This document shows positions 11,359-59,099 of a stretch of DNA of 64,000 nt, in pieces. Numbering within the stretch: the stretch's first letter is position 1; every line of letters begins with the position of its first letter. The notes below the pieces were generated by a model, which searched no databases, was not told the DNA's origin, and worked only from the letters and a program-made list of their open reading frames with translations. Position numbers and translations under genes: made by a program. The DNA comes from an uncultured Alphaproteobacteria bacterium (GTDB taxonomy: Bacteria > Pseudomonadota > Alphaproteobacteria > HIMB59 > GCA-002718135), in contig CACEMR010000001.1 of assembly GCA_902560725.1 (NCBI GenBank), forward strand, positions 65,027 through 129,026. The letters are read 5' to 3'.

Positions 11359-12735
11359 ATGATCGGTTATTTGGCTTTAGCAAGAGATACTTTTGATGTT
11401 AATTATGCAATTGATAAAAAGAATAGATTTGAAAAGTTTATTAATTCTTTTGCAAACGATATAGTAAAATACGATAGAATAATTTCAAATAATGATATTG
11501 GAAAAGAAGCAATTAACTTTTTTAGAAAATTAAATTGTAAGAAGTTTATTATTGCGCAAACAACATTTACAGATGCTAAATTTATCACTAAATTTGCTGA
11601 TATTTTTGATAAACCAATTTATTTTATTAGTTTTAAAGAACCGAGAACAGGAAAAAGATTAAGATTAAATTCATTATGCGGTGTTAATCTTGCTATGCAT
11701 TCATTAATGAAATTTAAACATAAACCTGAATTTTCAATATTCACAAACAATAAACTTTATGATTTTGATAAACTTAATAATTTTATTATTAATACAAAAA
11801 AAAATAAGAAAATTAATAAAATTAGAGAAATAAAAAAAAATAAAAATATTGGTAAAAAGTTATTTTTAAAAAAGAAGAATTTGGGCCTTATAGGTAAAAG
11901 ACCAGAAGGATTTTATACTTGTGATTATGATAGCTTAGAATTAGTTAAAAAATTAAATTACAACCTAAAAAAAATAAAATTAGAATCTTTATTTAATGAA
12001 TCTAAAAAAATAAAAGCTAAAGATATTTTGTTGACTAAAAGCAAAATTAAAAAAAACTTGGATTCTGTTTCTAAACTAAATCAGAAGGAGTTAGATAAAA
12101 GTATATCGATTTTTCATGGTTTAGAAAAAATAAAAAAAGATAAAAAAATTGATACATTTGCAATTAAATGCTGGCCTGAAATGTTTACAGAATATGGATG
12201 TGCTTCGTGCGGCCCAATGGCCATGATGAATGAAAAAGGTGTTAGTTGTGCATGTGAAGCTGATGTATTAGGAAGTGTCAGTTGCGATATATTAAATCAA
12301 ATTACCAATCAGCCATCATTACTTGTAGATGTAGTAGATTGTGATCCACAATCTGATACTGTAGTTTTCTGGCATTGCGGATTAGCGCCAATAAGTATGG
12401 CAAAAAAAAATTCAGCTAGTGCGACTATACACTCAAATAGAAAAAAACCTTTACTTCACAACTTTGCTCTAAAACCTGGAAAGATTACTATTTTTAGAGT
12501 GTCTAAGTCAGAGAATAAATTAAAATTTTTTGTATTAAGAGCAGAAATTTTAAATAAAAAAAATTCATTTTCTGGAACATCGGGTGTTGTTAAATTTGCA
12601 AAAAACACATATCCGAAATTAAAGAGAATATTCTCTTCAGGTATGGAGCATCACTTTGCTTTTACATATGGAAATATTTATTCTGATTTAATAAAAATAA
12701 GTAAACAATTAAATATTCCTATCTACACAGCATGA
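11359..12735 (+). CDS. putative sugar isomerase (L-fucose/L-arabinose isomerase-like family)
   Basis: The C-terminal half (CWPE...CACEADVLG...FWHCG) resembles FucI/AraA-like isomerase cores from memory. The middle is K/N-rich. The assignment is tentative. Confidence 0.45.
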   Translation: MIGYLALARDTFDVNYAIDKKNRFEKFINSFANDIVKYDRIISNNDIGKEAINFFRKLNCKKFIIAQTTFTDAKFITKFADIFDKPIYFISFKEPRTGKRLRLNSLCGVNLAMHSLMKFKHKPEFSIFTNNKLYDFDKLNNFIINTKKNKKINKIREIKKNKNIGKKLFLKKKNLGLIGKRPEGFYTCDYDSLELVKKLNYNLKKIKLESLFNESKKIKAKDILLTKSKIKKNLDSVSKLNQKELDKSISIFHGLEKIKKDKKIDTFAIKCWPEMFTEYGCASCGPMAMMNEKGVSCACEADVLGSVSCDILNQITNQPSLLVDVVDCDPQSDTVVFWHCGLAPISMAKKNSASATIHSNRKKPLLHNFALKPGKITIFRVSKSENKLKFFVLRAEILNKKNSFSGTSGVVKFAKNTYPKLKRIFSSGMEHHFAFTYGNIYSDLIKISKQLNIPIYTA

Positions 12736-55118: not shown

Positions 55119-56258
55119 CTAACAGCCTTTAAGCTCATCTCCAAGATTTGTTATCAACTTAAAATAAAGAGATTTATTTGAGTCAATATTAGCACCTAGA
55201 GGATCAAAGACACCTGTTTTGATATTCATATCCTCAGCTATTGTTGTAATTATCTTTGGATTGAACTGTGGTTCAGAGAATATACATTTTATTCCTCTAT
55301 CCTTAATTACATCCTGAATATCAGCAATCTGTTTAGCGCCTGGTAAAACATCAGTGTTTAACGTAAGTGCTCCAGCTGCTCTAACACCAAATCTTTCTTC
55401 AAAGTATTGGTAAGCATCATGGAAGACAACAAACTTAGCATCTTTATTTATACCTTTGTCAATATCATTAACAAGTTGATCAAGTGATTGAATTGTTGCT
55501 TTTGCATTAGCCTCATATTTATCTTTGTTTGCTGGATCTAAATCACCTAACTCATGAGCAATTTCATGAACCATTTCTTTAGCATTCATTGGATCTAACC
55601 ATATGTGAGCATCAAACTCTCCATGATTGTGACCTTCGTGTCCAGCATGATCGTCGTGGTCATCATGGTCATCATGATCATCGTGGTCATCATGATCATC
55701 ATGGTCATCATGATCATCGTGGTCATCATGATCATCATGGTCATCATGATCATCGTGGTCATCGTGGTCATCGTGGTCATCATGGTCGTCGTGGTCATCG
55801 TGGTCATCATGGTCATCATGATCATCATGGTCATCATGATCGTCGTGGTCATCGTGGTCATCATGGTCGTCGTGGTCTTCAAAAATTGATTCTTCTCTAA
55901 ATTTTAATTTATTAATACTTTCAATTTCCATAAACTCAACAACTTCAGCATTTTTAACAATAGACTCAAGTGGTCTCTCCATAAAAGTTTCGATACCTTC
56001 TCCTATCCAAAAAATTATGTCAGCTTCTTCAAGAAGTTTTGCGTGTGAAGGTTTTAATGTAAAACTATGCGGAGAAGTGCTGCCTTCAATTATAAGTGCA
56101 GGCTCTCCCACGCCGTCCATTACATTTGCAATCAGTGAGTGAAGGGGTTTAATTGTAGTAACAACTTTTAACTCTGCTCTGGCAGAGGAAGTTGATACTA
56201 GAATTGCTGAAAAAAATACGATTTTTAAAAACATTAAAAAAAAGTTGTGTTGTCTCAT
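55119..56258 (-). CDS. znuA: zinc ABC transporter substrate-binding protein with a hyper-extended Asp/His loop
   Basis: Signal peptide and cluster-9 SBP motifs (PHSFTLKP, AHIWLDP, VFHDAYQYF, FSEPQF). Divergent from znuCB-zur. Confidence 0.9.
   Translation of the reverse strand: MRQHNFFLMFLKIVFFSAILVSTSSARAELKVVTTIKPLHSLIANVMDGVGEPALIIEGSTSPHSFTLKPSHAKLLEEADIIFWIGEGIETFMERPLESIVKNAEVVEFMEIESINKLKFREESIFEDHDDHDDHDDHDDHDDHDDHDDHDDHDDHDDHDDHDDHDDHDDHDDHDDHDDHDDHDDHDDHDDHDDHDDHDDHDDHAGHEGHNHGEFDAHIWLDPMNAKEMVHEIAHELGDLDPANKDKYEANAKATIQSLDQLVNDIDKGINKDAKFVVFHDAYQYFEERFGVRAAGALTLNTDVLPGAKQIADIQDVIKDRGIKCIFSEPQFNPKIITTIAEDMNIKTGVFDPLGANIDSNKSLYFKLITNLGDELKGC
55647..55877 (-). repeat. 231-bp in-frame tandem repeat of 9-nt period (25.7 units) encoding (DHD)n inside znuA
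   Basis: I parsed it unit by unit: plus-strand units are ATG/GTG-ATC/GTC-ATC/GTC. Two perfect adjacent 36-nt super-units lie at 55674-55709 and 55710-55745. Together they encode 77 consecutive D/H residues. Confidence 0.95.
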
Positions 56259-56297: not shown

Positions 56298-56315
56298 GTA
56301 ATGTTATAATATTAC
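56298..56315. promoter_or_regulatory. putative Zur box overlapping an extended -10 in the znuA/znuC divergent promoter region
   Basis: GTAATGTTA|TAATATTAC is an 18-bp palindrome with 8 of 9 positions matched per half. It contains TGtTATAAT (56302-56310), a perfect extended -10 for the plus-strand znuC. The zur gene lies in the same locus. Confidence 0.55.
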
Positions 56316-56337: not shown

Positions 56338-57081
56338 ATGAGTGAAAAAAACAATTTGTTGGTAAAATTAGAAAACGGAGGAATTTTCAAATCGTCTAAA
56401 TGGTTAGTTAGAGGTGTGTCCTTAGAAATAAATAAAGGTCAAATTGTAACTTTAATTGGTCCAAACGGATCTGGAAAAACGACAACAGCTAAAATGGTAT
56501 TGGATATTCTTTCTCCTGATGAAGGAGTAATGAAAAGTTTTACAAAGAAGGTGGCTTATGTTCCTCAAAAAATTAGTATTGATTGGACATTGCCTCTTCG
56601 TGTCATAGACTTTATGCAATTAACAAGTAAACTTAGTCAAAATGAAATTATTGAGTCCTTAAGTTTAACTGGTGTAGAACAACTACTTTACAATCAAATA
56701 CATAATTTATCAGGTGGAGAGTTTCAGCGCGTCCTAATTGCAAGAGCCGTTGCTAAGAAACCTGAATTTTTAGTTTTAGATGAACCTGTACAGGGAGTTG
56801 ATTTTAATGGAGAAATTGCTCTTTATGATCTTATTAAAAAAATATCTTCAACACTCAATTGTGGTATTTTATTAATATCACATGATCTACATTTTGTGAT
56901 GTCAGCAACAGATCATGTAATTTGTTTAAATGGACATATTTGCTGTTCTGGAACACCAAGTGCAGTGGTAAAAGATTCTGCTTATATTGAGTTATTTGGT
57001 GAGCATAGATCAAAAACTTTAGCATATTACCAACATGATCATGATCATTCACACGAAACTGATGGAAGTGTAGTTAATTAA
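56338..57081 (+). CDS. znuC: zinc ABC transporter ATP-binding protein
   Basis: GPNGSGKTT, LSGGEFQR, LVLDEP and a His-rich C-terminus (YYQHDHDHSHE). Confidence 0.9.
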   Translation: MSEKNNLLVKLENGGIFKSSKWLVRGVSLEINKGQIVTLIGPNGSGKTTTAKMVLDILSPDEGVMKSFTKKVAYVPQKISIDWTLPLRVIDFMQLTSKLSQNEIIESLSLTGVEQLLYNQIHNLSGGEFQRVLIARAVAKKPEFLVLDEPVQGVDFNGEIALYDLIKKISSTLNCGILLISHDLHFVMSATDHVICLNGHICCSGTPSAVVKDSAYIELFGEHRSKTLAYYQHDHDHSHETDGSVVN

Positions 57082-57884
57082 TGTTTGATGATTTTTTTAT
57101 AAGGGCGCTTGTAGCTGGTATAGGAATAGCTATTGTCGTTGGTCCCCTTGGATGCTTTGTTATATGGAGAAGATTATCATATTTTGGTGATACTTTATCT
57201 CACTCAGCATTATTGGGAGTGACACTTGCTTATTCGTTTAGTTTAAATATTTCTTTATCTGTTTTTATAATATCTGCAGTTGTAGCATTACTTCTGATTA
57301 ATTTACAAAAAAGAACCAAATTAGCTGGAGACTCTTTACTGGGGCTTTTAGCTCACTCTACATTAGCTATTGGTTTGGTTTTAATTGGTTTTTTATCTTA
57401 CATTCGTTTTGATCTTATGGGTTTATTGTTTGGTGATATTCTAGCCGTAACAATAGAAGATATTGCTTTAGTTTGGGTTGGTGGTTTTGTTATTTTAGGA
57501 ATTTTATATTTTATTTGGAAGTCGCTATTTTCAGCAACTGTTAATTATGATCTATCTGCAGCAGAGGGTATGAAGCCTGAAGTTTCAAATTTCATATTTA
57601 CTCTTCTATTAGCAGGAGTAATTGCTCTTTCAATAAAAATGATAGGTGCCTTATTAATTACAGGGTTACTTTTAATTCCAGCAGCAACGGCAAGAAATAT
57701 TAGCAATAGTCCAAATCAAATGGTTTTTTTAGCAACTTTAGTTGGTATTATATCAGTAATTGCCGGTTTGTTTACTTCATTAGAACTTAACACATCTTCA
57801 GGCCCTACAATCATTGTAGTTGCCTTGATACTATTTATTGTATCTTTGGTGCCACTTGAAATTAAGGGTCAGTTGCAAAAATGA
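57081..57884 (+). CDS. znuB: zinc ABC transporter permease
   Basis: 267 aa, TM-rich ABC-3 family pattern. 1-nt overlap with znuC. Confidence 0.9.
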   Translation: MFDDFFIRALVAGIGIAIVVGPLGCFVIWRRLSYFGDTLSHSALLGVTLAYSFSLNISLSVFIISAVVALLLINLQKRTKLAGDSLLGLLAHSTLAIGLVLIGFLSYIRFDLMGLLFGDILAVTIEDIALVWVGGFVILGILYFIWKSLFSATVNYDLSAAEGMKPEVSNFIFTLLLAGVIALSIKMIGALLITGLLLIPAATARNISNSPNQMVFLATLVGIISVIAGLFTSLELNTSSGPTIIVVALILFIVSLVPLEIKGQLQK

Positions 57885-57906: not shown

Positions 57907-58311
57907 ATGACTTTAGAATCATCTAACTTAACTAAAAACCAACAAACAGTTCTTAATATTTTAGAAAAATCAACAGAACCTCTAAAAGCATATGCTATTC
58001 TTTTTGATATTCAAAAAAAAGGAATAAAATCTCCACTTCAAGTTTACCGAGCGCTAGATAAATTAATTGAGATTGGCAAAGTACACAAAATAGAAAGTAG
58101 AAATTCTTACATAGCTTGTAAGCATGAGGGTTGTAACGCTAAAACTTCTACTGCTTTTTTGATCTGTGAAAAATGTGATAACGTTACTGAGTTAAAAAGA
58201 AATAATTTATTAAGCTATTTTTCAAAACAAGCTGAAAAAGATAATTTTCAATACAGAAAACATAATTTAGAAATTTATGGATTATGTAATAATTGTAAAC
58301 TTAAAAATTAA
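57907..58311 (+). CDS. zur: Fur-family zinc uptake regulator
   Basis: 134 aa with a winged-helix N-terminal domain and two CxxC pairs (CEKC, CNNC). Last gene of znuCB-zur. Confidence 0.75.
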   Translation: MTLESSNLTKNQQTVLNILEKSTEPLKAYAILFDIQKKGIKSPLQVYRALDKLIEIGKVHKIESRNSYIACKHEGCNAKTSTAFLICEKCDNVTELKRNNLLSYFSKQAEKDNFQYRKHNLEIYGLCNNCKLKN

Positions 58312-59099
58312 TTAATTAAATTATCAATTTTATTTAAACATTTATTTAAACCAAGCTCATATTTCGTCCTTATAAAATGCTCTTTAATTATTTCTACCCA
58401 CTTAAACTTTTGTTGATTTTGATGAGATGCATAAAAACAATTTAAAGTATAAGGCATATTAAACATTTTTAATATTTCTTGCCTGATGACATCATTTGTT
58501 AAAATAGAGAGAGATTCATGAATATATTTTTCAACTATTTTTTGATCACTTAATGTAACTTTGGGTATTTCAAAAAGACCGAGAAATCTAAAATATCTAT
58601 AAATTCTTAAATAATCCTCTTTGATTCTATCTTCGATTTCTCCAATAAATTTTATTTTTTTTTCTCTCAAATGTGATTGGCCATCATAATAATCATATAA
58701 TTTATTGTTACCTCCAAGATAAAGAGCATTAAATGTAAAATCTCTTCTTGCTGCATCTTTTTTCCAATCAGTTGTATAAATGACGTTTGTGTGTCGTCCA
58801 AGCTGATTTACATCTTCACGTAAGGTTGTTATTTGTATTTTTTTATTTAAAGGATATGAAATTATAGATCCATATTGAATAGCAAAGTCATCGTATTCAA
58901 TATTATTATTTTCTAATAAATTTAAAACTTCTTTTGGTTCAATTTTAGTAGCAGTATCGATATCCTTGACTTCTCTATGCATTAATTTATCTCTAATACA
59001 GCCTCCCACTAACCTAATATCAGCACTATTTTTTTCAAAAATTGAAAATAATAGTTTTACATGGTTTGTATTTAATAAATCAGTAACATTATTATTCAT
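58308..59099 (-). CDS. cca: class II tRNA nucleotidyltransferase (CCA-adding / poly(A) polymerase family), short 263-aa form
   Basis: Head-domain motifs GGCIRDKLMHREVKDIDTAT (motif A), ARRDFTFNAL (motif B/C) and EDYLRIYRYFRF (motif D). The ORF ends soon afterwards. Confidence 0.7.
   Translation of the reverse strand: MNNNVTDLLNTNHVKLLFSIFEKNSADIRLVGGCIRDKLMHREVKDIDTATKIEPKEVLNLLENNNIEYDDFAIQYGSIISYPLNKKIQITTLREDVNQLGRHTNVIYTTDWKKDAARRDFTFNALYLGGNNKLYDYYDGQSHLREKKIKFIGEIEDRIKEDYLRIYRYFRFLGLFEIPKVTLSDQKIVEKYIHESLSILTNDVIRQEILKMFNMPYTLNCFYASHQNQQKFKWVEIIKEHFIRTKYELGLNKCLNKIDNLIN

Follow-up and report, generated by a model that had tools for sequence, protein, structure and literature searches.

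A copy-number-variable, in-frame Asp-His-Asp repeat in the loop of the zinc-binding protein ZnuA of an uncultured alphaproteobacterium

The stretch of DNA analysed here (the window) is 64,000 nucleotides (nt) long and comes from an uncultured, AT-rich marine alphaproteobacterium of the HIMB59 lineage (assembly GCA_902560725.1, contig CACEMR010000001.1, positions 65,027 to 129,026). It contains a gene for ZnuA, the periplasmic zinc-binding protein of an ATP-binding cassette (ABC) importer, in which the His-rich loop consists largely of the tripeptide Asp-His-Asp (DHD) repeated in tandem. The number of 9-nt units encoding this tripeptide differs between strains that are otherwise nearly identical, and the gain and loss of whole units is largely established by their comparison. 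It is probable, although well short of certain, that the array is an in-frame hypervariable coding repeat, driven by slippage, that expands the canonical His/Asp loop of ZnuA into a multivalent arm for the capture of zinc. We infer the zinc-capturing part of this reading from the composition and position of the loop.

Residues 128-204 of the protein consist of D and H only, arranged as 25 DHD triplets followed by a final DH. The initial annotation had placed 25.7 units, with 51 D and 26 H, at 55647-55877, and both coordinates and counts are exact. The array is encoded by 29 GAT, 22 GAC, 15 CAT and 11 CAC codons and by no others. For positions 55646-55881, Tandem Repeats Finder gives a period of 9, 26.2 copies, 84% matches and a score of 304. 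The 9-nt units are of four kinds only, all differences between them being synonymous C/T exchanges in third positions, and follow each other in the order a b c a d b d b c a b c c c d b d c d b d c d b a d'. The total loop (residues 127-217) is 91 residues long. It is situated at the position of the His-rich loop of Escherichia coli ZnuA, directly before the second His ligand of the metal site. The repeat is thus a version of the His/acidic loop of ZnuA, as had been proposed, which replaces and extends the canonical loop at the same position of the alignment. The native-looking segment beyond the repeat, AGHEGHNHGEFDAH at 55605-55646, is conserved in homologues. In an AlphaFold model, residues 128-218 have a predicted local distance difference test score (pLDDT) below 50 and no secondary structure, and no usable loop conformation could be obtained from this model.

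A part of the array is periodic at 36 nt. The two adjacent copies recognised earlier (55674-55709 and 55710-55745) are identical, and the periodic block to which they belong is longer than had been stated, extending over 55660-55763. A perfect self-match of 68 nt, as found in the array, was attained in none of 3000 shuffles of third positions and in 8 of 3000 shuffles of whole units. The 36-nt block, with its 2.9 copies, therefore marks a recent multi-unit duplication, in agreement with the recent expansion that had been suggested. The further suggestion that the synonymous variation is organised in higher-order units of 36 nt holds locally, for this perfect block, but not for the array as a whole. 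The array-wide identity is 84.7% at a lag of 9, 88.3% at 18, 88.2% at 36 and 89.3% at 81, and a 36-nt super-unit throughout the array is ruled out, the identity at lag 36 being no better than at lags 18 or 81.

Three open reading frames (ORFs) that cross the repeat, either in another frame or on the opposite strand (55589-55900, plus; 55595-55882, minus; 55605-55889, plus) were rejected as by-products of the repeat. They would encode 94-103 amino acids (aa), one of the products being His-rich (HHGHHDHRGHH...), and could be mis-called as genes.

Exact look-ups with the ZnuA and ZnuB proteins of the window gave no record. The ZnuC encoded next to znuA, however, has exact matches in 63 blocks of the contig collection, and almost all of these blocks hold short marine metagenome contigs. 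Of the contigs, 23 were read, and the loops were compared in ten that carry the identical ZnuC. Four of the ten (L108, L110, L111 and L113) end inside the array. In the siblings that read through it, the flanks of the repeat within znuA are 98-100% identical to those of the window, and the loops differ. L109 has 23 pure residues between flanks that agree with the window at 381/381 and 527/528 bases (99.9%), L112 has 11 (flanks 99.0% identical) and L091, which lies on the same contig as L104, has 59 (98.9%). The loops of L081, L105 and L107 are irregular. The expectation that the length varies between strains was thus borne out: 11, 23, 59 and 77 pure residues occur at flank identities of about 99-100%. 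Five further pairs of loci show the same, namely L090/L099 (flanks 99.9% identical, 26 and 53 residues), L084/L098 (99.9%, 38 and 62), L084/L086 (99.8%, 38 and 26), L087/L093 (99.5%, 26 and 44) and L003/L102 (97.6%, 32 and 68). Copy-number variation is found in at least four lineages besides that of the window, and among more than 30 pairs of loci with a flank identity of at least 97% the array lengths are mostly different.

One of the irregular siblings, L081 (positions 1246-2262 of ENA contig LUOE20-1_SAMN11874621 scaffold_12693), has flanks 100% and 99.8% identical to those of the window. Five consecutive units of its array carry one transversion each, giving E, E, Y, Q and E. This is either a genuine interrupted allele or an error of the reads or of the assembly.

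In the metagenome contigs, the pure runs that end at the native segment are all 3n+2 residues long, and the pure arrays differ in length by 2, 4, 6, 8, 9, 12 or 18 whole units. The step thus amounts to a single 9-nt unit. Of the steps of 3 or 12 codons that had been anticipated, the first was found, whereas there is no preference for the second. The synonymous unit variants and their order are particular to each array, as expected of local duplication and loss. With head-to-tail units, a period of 9 (a multiple of 3) and whole-unit differences between near-identical genomes, the array has the properties of an in-frame coding repeat of variable unit number. Arrays differ in length where only 0.1% of the flanking sites differ, which is indirect evidence that copy number may change far faster than point mutations accumulate. 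Slippage or unequal exchange is the likely source of the length changes.

Arrays of this kind are not confined to the window and its siblings. Pure (DHD)n runs of 23-83 residues are present at the same site in independent single-cell genomes and metagenome contigs. The single-cell genomes of related species have runs of 55 (L001), 44 (L026) and 32 (L003) residues. A metagenome scan with the pattern Phe-[E/G/D]-(DHD)8 matched 22 contigs, 20 of them in the znuA clade of the window. In these 20 contigs the pure runs reach 83 (L083), 77 (L100), 68 (L102), 62 (L098 and L101) and 59 (L091) residues, and the loop of L095 totals 125 residues. L083 and L100 come from different projects; their flanks are 99.5% identical and their unit order is mostly common. 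Four of these contigs bear the accession prefix AACY of the Global Ocean Sampling (GOS) project, and L100 is a GOS contig. We take the AACY contigs to be assemblies of Sanger reads, which would span such arrays. On/off switching by phase variation, considered as a possible effect of the repeat, is ruled out: the unit is 9 nt long and all 20 znuA arrays of the metagenome scan remain in frame through the repeat.

The arrays are uniform as protein and scrambled as DNA. Among 1071 repeat codons from 30 arrays, 43.8% of the D and H codons end in C, which is a near-maximal mixing of C and T, and 3.3% of the codons specify residues other than D or H. As slippage is blind to whether a change is synonymous, this asymmetry indicates that the protein sequence of the arrays is under purifying selection for residue identity. 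In the window array, 43% of the Asp codons and 42% of the His codons are C-ending, compared with 12% and 18% in the other long ORFs of the window (Fisher p = 9e-8 and 0.008). The use of C-ending codons is alike across independent arrays, mostly about 40-50% where at least 20 codons were analysed. A gene-wide codon bias linked to expression is an unlikely cause, the scaffold of znuA having 16 GAT and 4 GAC codons, although these numbers are small. Adjacent identical 9-nt units are rarer than expected by chance, being found in 40 of 340 neighbour pairs compared with 65.3 +/- 6.6 after shuffling, and none of 5000 shuffles gave a value as low. Such scrambling may slow the slippage of single units or may merely be what survives slippage.

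Whether the loop is unusually long, as the initial annotation held, depends on the comparison. The loops of characterised ZnuAs have about 20 to just over 30 residues, and a Paracoccus denitrificans loop of 'over 30' residues and the region of about 60 residues in ZrgA have each been called 'extremely long' (PMC8900738, PMC7731109). Compared with these experimentally characterised proteins the loop of the window is indeed long. Compared with alphaproteobacteria it is not: at 80 genome loci delimited by the same anchors the loops have 37-123 residues, and 12 of the 80 are longer than the 91 residues of the window. Many of these 80 loops are also tandemly repetitive. The loops of close homologues have 16 to 112 residues, and those of related ZnuAs overall 16 to 125. 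The length is thus in the upper part of a broad distribution that has not been described before, and is not exceptional by itself. What distinguishes the array is the purity of a perfect two-letter, three-residue repeat together with its copy-number variation at the level of strains. The literature search found no description of a (DHD)n repeat in ZnuA or of its polymorphism. Papers on metal transporters of SAR11 mention znuA but not its loop (PMC4771312).

Viral contigs were also scanned for (DHD)8. The one match, unrelated to ZnuA, is in the metagenome-assembled genome (MAG) of a giant virus (L114, IMGVR_UViG_GVMAG-S-ERX555976-44_000001, 12288-12359, minus strand). The contig ends within the (DHD)8+ run, which is part of a small ORF with a hydrophobic segment. 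A (DHD)n repeat therefore also occurs outside ZnuA.

The proposed mechanism is as follows. The array gains and loses 9-nt units, individually or as blocks such as the 36-nt d-b-d-c, probably by replication slippage or unequal exchange. The frame is always kept, and wild populations therefore contain alleles ranging from about 4 to about 28 units. The product would be a disordered and strongly anionic chain placed directly before His218, at the entrance to the three-His site. Its 26 His residues, at a fixed H-x-x-H spacing and flanked by carboxylates, would most likely form many transient Zn(II) sites of lower affinity, on the order of 6-13 if scaled from the 1-2 sites of a loop of about 20 residues. 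These extra sites would enlarge the capture volume and strip zinc from weak ligands or buffer it. The zinc would then be passed to the high-affinity three-His site and, in zinc starvation, to ZnuBC. Copy number would set the capacity, and selection would preserve the two residues, leaving nucleotides and copy number to drift or to be tuned. The chelation of metal by the DHD arm is presumed by analogy with the characterised loops: the extra zinc sites of ZnuA need the loop, and their number has been suggested to grow with the number of His residues (PMC8900738).

Several points weigh against this reading. Deletion of the His-rich loops in P. denitrificans did not impair zinc acquisition (PMC7731109). 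High-affinity binding does not depend on the loop, whose function has been called 'enigmatic' (PMC7731109, PMC8900738). That near-identical strains have anything from 4 to 26 units is equally compatible with a nearly neutral length. Purity of the array is not obligatory, since E, Y and Q replace some residues in that of L081. Assemblies from short reads tend towards short alleles and may collapse repeats, and the allele spectrum is biased accordingly, although the existence of the polymorphism is secure. Finally, the exact copy number of the window array is given by the assembly and not by reads.

The main rival explanation is a nearly neutral runaway repeat. According to it, slippage changes the length of a tolerant, disordered loop without affecting zinc uptake, and selection only purges residues that harm solubility or the handling of metal. 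The spread of 11-77 pure residues between almost identical flanks is what such a repeat would produce, the P. denitrificans deletions had no phenotype in zinc acquisition, and related ZnuAs work with loops of very different length (16 to 125 residues). However, long arrays persist in several AT-rich lineages with small genomes despite the cost in His and Asp of each unit. Non-synonymous change is nearly absent where synonymous change is saturated, so that at least the composition is selected, and the elevation of C-ending codons is alike in independent arrays. We regard near-neutrality as possible, although it would not be our expectation.

If the arm does capture zinc, the (DHD)n array might also act as an evolvable tuning knob, in which slippage continually makes alleles with different numbers of zinc-capture sites, the local zinc supply sorts them and the length tracks the trace-metal regime of the ocean. 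This extension is speculative and rather doubtful. If true, it would be a counterpart of contingency loci in a non-pathogen and in nutrient acquisition, and would offer, for the first time, a natural dose series that reveals the function of the ZnuA loop. For two decades this His-rich loop has been described as enigmatic, and its deletion in model bacteria has little phenotypic effect. Otherwise identical proteins that differ naturally in having about 4 to 28 DHD units make the question directly testable. The hosts are abundant open-ocean Alphaproteobacteria with small genomes, from waters that are among the poorest in zinc on Earth.

A different role for the loop would be that of a sensor or brake, which, once loaded with metal at high periplasmic zinc, would prevent docking to ZnuB or close the site, a longer loop shifting the set-point; alternatively, the loop would serve another metal or partner. 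A role as sensor of high zinc has been proposed for Synechocystis ZnuA, and His140 of the Salmonella loop can occupy the primary site (both as cited in PMC8900738). The substrate specificity of SAR11 ZnuA has been noted as untested (PMC4771312). Against this role, an excess of zinc is improbable in seawater, the apparent control by a Zur box would switch the gene on in starvation, and no gene for a ZinT-like or AztD-like partner is seen adjoining the operon within the window. A sensor or brake is improbable.

It is still less probable that the copy number of the window is a product of the assembly, with units mis-joined or over-extended and a true allele that is shorter or different: four of the ten sibling contigs break within the array, those assembled through it have shorter arrays and the exact 379-aa ZnuA of the window has no record in the look-up, but independent data contain arrays as long or longer (L083, 83 aa, and the GOS contig L100, 77 aa), a single-cell genome has one of 55 aa, the reading frame is unbroken and the units at both edges (a... 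b a d') agree with sibling alleles. Moreover, the longest internal exact repeat of the array is 68 nt, and longer k-mers or reads and ordinary assemblers therefore resolve it unambiguously. An assembly artefact is thus unlikely, and the array is taken to be a real coding repeat.

The breaks within sibling contigs do justify the earlier warning that the repeat is an assembly hazard. Marine assemblies from short reads routinely break or truncate a znuA with such an array and may also collapse it, and in assemblies from long reads its frame can be shifted. Catalogues of marine zinc transporters therefore under-report or mis-measure znuA. In the long-read, pilon-polished MAG L042, the loop reads ...TAIMTIMTSTSMTSTAMRIMT..., which resembles an out-of-frame translation of an H/D repeat. 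Two members of one protein cluster, P0135 and P0142, are fragments of 152 and 215 aa from the same 1.31-Mb contig. Both observations suggest frameshifts within arrays in long-read assemblies, and for L042 a sequencing error is the more likely origin of the out-of-frame stretch.

The znuA gene and the features around it are listed in Table 1.

Table 1. Coordinates of znuA, its repeat and the adjoining zinc operon in the window
Feature	Position	Strand	Basis or remark
znuA coding sequence, 379 aa, periplasmic Zn-binding protein of ABC importer	55119..56258	-	Pfam, NCBIfam and structure matches
Probable Sec signal peptide, residues 1-28, ...SSARA/ELKVV	56175..56258	-	Inspection: hydrophobic core, then A-x-A
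His64, first metal ligand (equivalent to E. coli His60)	56067..56069	-	Alignment
(DHD)n array, 25.7 units of 9 nt, 77 residues	55647..55877	-	Codon count, Tandem Repeats Finder
Perfect 36-nt-periodic block, 2.9 copies of units d-b-d-c	55660..55763	-	Mark of recent multi-unit duplication
AGHEGHNHGEFDAH, conserved non-repeat end of loop, terminating in metal ligand His218 (equivalent to E. coli His143)	55605..55646	-	Alignment of homologues
His280 in FHDAY, third metal ligand (equivalent to E. coli His207)	55419..55421	-	Alignment
Zur-box-like palindrome GTAATGTTATAATATTAC	56298..56315	.	Divergent znuA/znuC intergenic region
znuC, ABC ATPase	56338..57081	+	PF00005; NCBIfam ZnuC best match, 274.2 bits, under cutoff 306
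znuB, ABC-3 permease	57081..57884	+	PF00950, E=2.4e-65; NCBIfam ZnuB best match, 233.7 bits, under cutoff 284
zur, Fur-family zinc uptake repressor	57907..58311	+	PF01475, E=4.4e-10; NCBIfam Zur best match, 81 bits, under cutoff 167

The window protein matches the Pfam family PF01297 (ZnuA) over residues 32-378 with E=5.1e-58 and 197 bits (cutoff 29), and the E. coli ZnuA structures 2ogw/2osv with E=9e-53. Its best NCBIfam match is ZnuA (NF007091) at 248.7 bits, under the equivalog cutoff of 268, which is an operational threshold for naming and no biochemical feature. All four Znu and Zur proteins score under their equivalog cutoffs, and the system is therefore called a ZnuA-family system of a divergent lineage. 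Such scores are expected for a divergent lineage, and the protein is filed as ZnuA-family and not as a certified equivalog. The ZnuAs of Pelagibacteraceae are only 43-52% identical to it, and the organism is therefore not assigned to SAR11.

In ZnuA the metal is coordinated by three His residues together with Glu or water (PMC8900738, PMC7731109). His64, His218 and His280 are invariant among 28 homologues and are aligned to the ligands His60, His143 and His207 of E. coli. H210, H212, G213, E214, F215 and H218 are likewise invariant among these 28, and the segment AGHEGHNHGEFDAH is aligned to HHHGDFNMH(143)LW of E. coli. Pro63, which precedes His64, occupies the position of E. coli Glu59. This corresponds to the 3His/water variant, which has been described for Synechocystis ZnuA (PMC8900738). 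In the AlphaFold model, residues 2-22 are helical, and domains of alternating strands and helices occur together with a helix at 242-269, in agreement with the ZnuA architecture of two alpha/beta domains that a long helix connects. The mean pLDDT of the model is only 67.8, being lowered by the loop. The predicted role of the window ZnuA is high-affinity, Zn-specific binding and delivery of the metal to the permease.

The znuA gene diverges from znuC-znuB-zur, and the region between znuA and znuC is 79 nt long. The core of the palindrome in this region, ATGTAATATTATAACAT, is almost fully conserved in 8 diverged genomes, and its flanks vary. The palindrome matches the footprinted Zur site of Yersinia pestis znuA, AATGTTATAATATTAC, at 16/16 bases (PMC2706843). 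Its conservation together with this match makes it likely that znuA is expressed under zinc starvation by way of the predicted Zur box. The C-terminus of ZnuC (57028-57081) is a short His/Asp-rich tail, YYQHDHDHSHETDGSVVN. After zur, directly beside the zinc operon, strains with an identical ZnuC protein differ in gene content. The window (58308-59099, minus strand) and L106 have a PolyA_pol gene of the CCA-adding type. L104 (3427-5118) has genes for CobW/UreG-like, UreF and UreE proteins instead, and L108 (2572-3533) has a CobW/UreG-like gene up to the end of the contig.

Loops at the same site are known from the group II cluster A-I ZnuAs of E. coli, Salmonella and Citrobacter (2osv, 2xqv, 7rcj), where they likewise lie directly before the second His ligand. 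The E. coli loop is also rich in D and H, starting HGDDDDHDH. These loops are disordered in the structures, as the window loop is in the model, and are needed for the extra zinc sites. They differ in being irregular and of about 20 residues, and no copy-number variation between strains has been described for them, whereas 77 of the 91 residues of the window loop form a perfect repeat. The P. denitrificans ZnuA and ZrgA regions resemble the window loop in that they are long, disordered and His/acidic, belong to binding proteins for zinc import and have a function called 'enigmatic', but they are shorter, of mixed composition and not reported as tandem repeats or as polymorphic. The COG0523 metallochaperones have repetitive His-rich stretches (HHX/HXH) of up to 70 residues (PMC3323870). 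These are also long repetitive inserts in zinc-homeostasis proteins of marine bacteria; the proteins, however, are a family of cytoplasmic GTPases, the motifs are different and no data on copy number in populations are given (PMC3323870).

Closer at hand, other alphaproteobacterial ZnuA loops are repeat-driven, at the same site and of comparable or greater length: L074 (HGHKE x11), L051 (DDEHAH x9), those of Pelagibacteraceae (HDDHGHGHKEKK x2-4) and L016 (123 residues). Their units of 5-29 residues include K, E, G or A, and none is a two-letter, three-residue unit of such purity. In the single-cell genomes of Pelagibacteraceae (L007-L029) the loops are made of 2-4 copies of the 12-residue unit HDDHGHGHKEKK and measure, for example, 42 aa (L019), 52 aa (L014) and 64 aa (L013), a copy-number variation of another unit in SAR11 proper. 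L082 and L094 encode a different, GC-richer cluster A-I binding protein (...AGHDHGAFDPHAW...) with a loop of about 90-100 residues, in which HDD triplets are broken by K, A, E, N or G. This loop suggests the parallel evolution of a repeat in another subfamily. Outside zinc transport, the Ser-Asp dipeptide (R/SD) repeats of the staphylococcal ClfA and Sdr proteins are, like the (DHD)n array, in-frame coding repeats of a minimal peptide, with synonymously degenerate units and a length that varies between strains. They form stalks of adhesins that span the cell wall, whereas the array described here forms a presumed metal-binding loop in a periplasmic transporter component.

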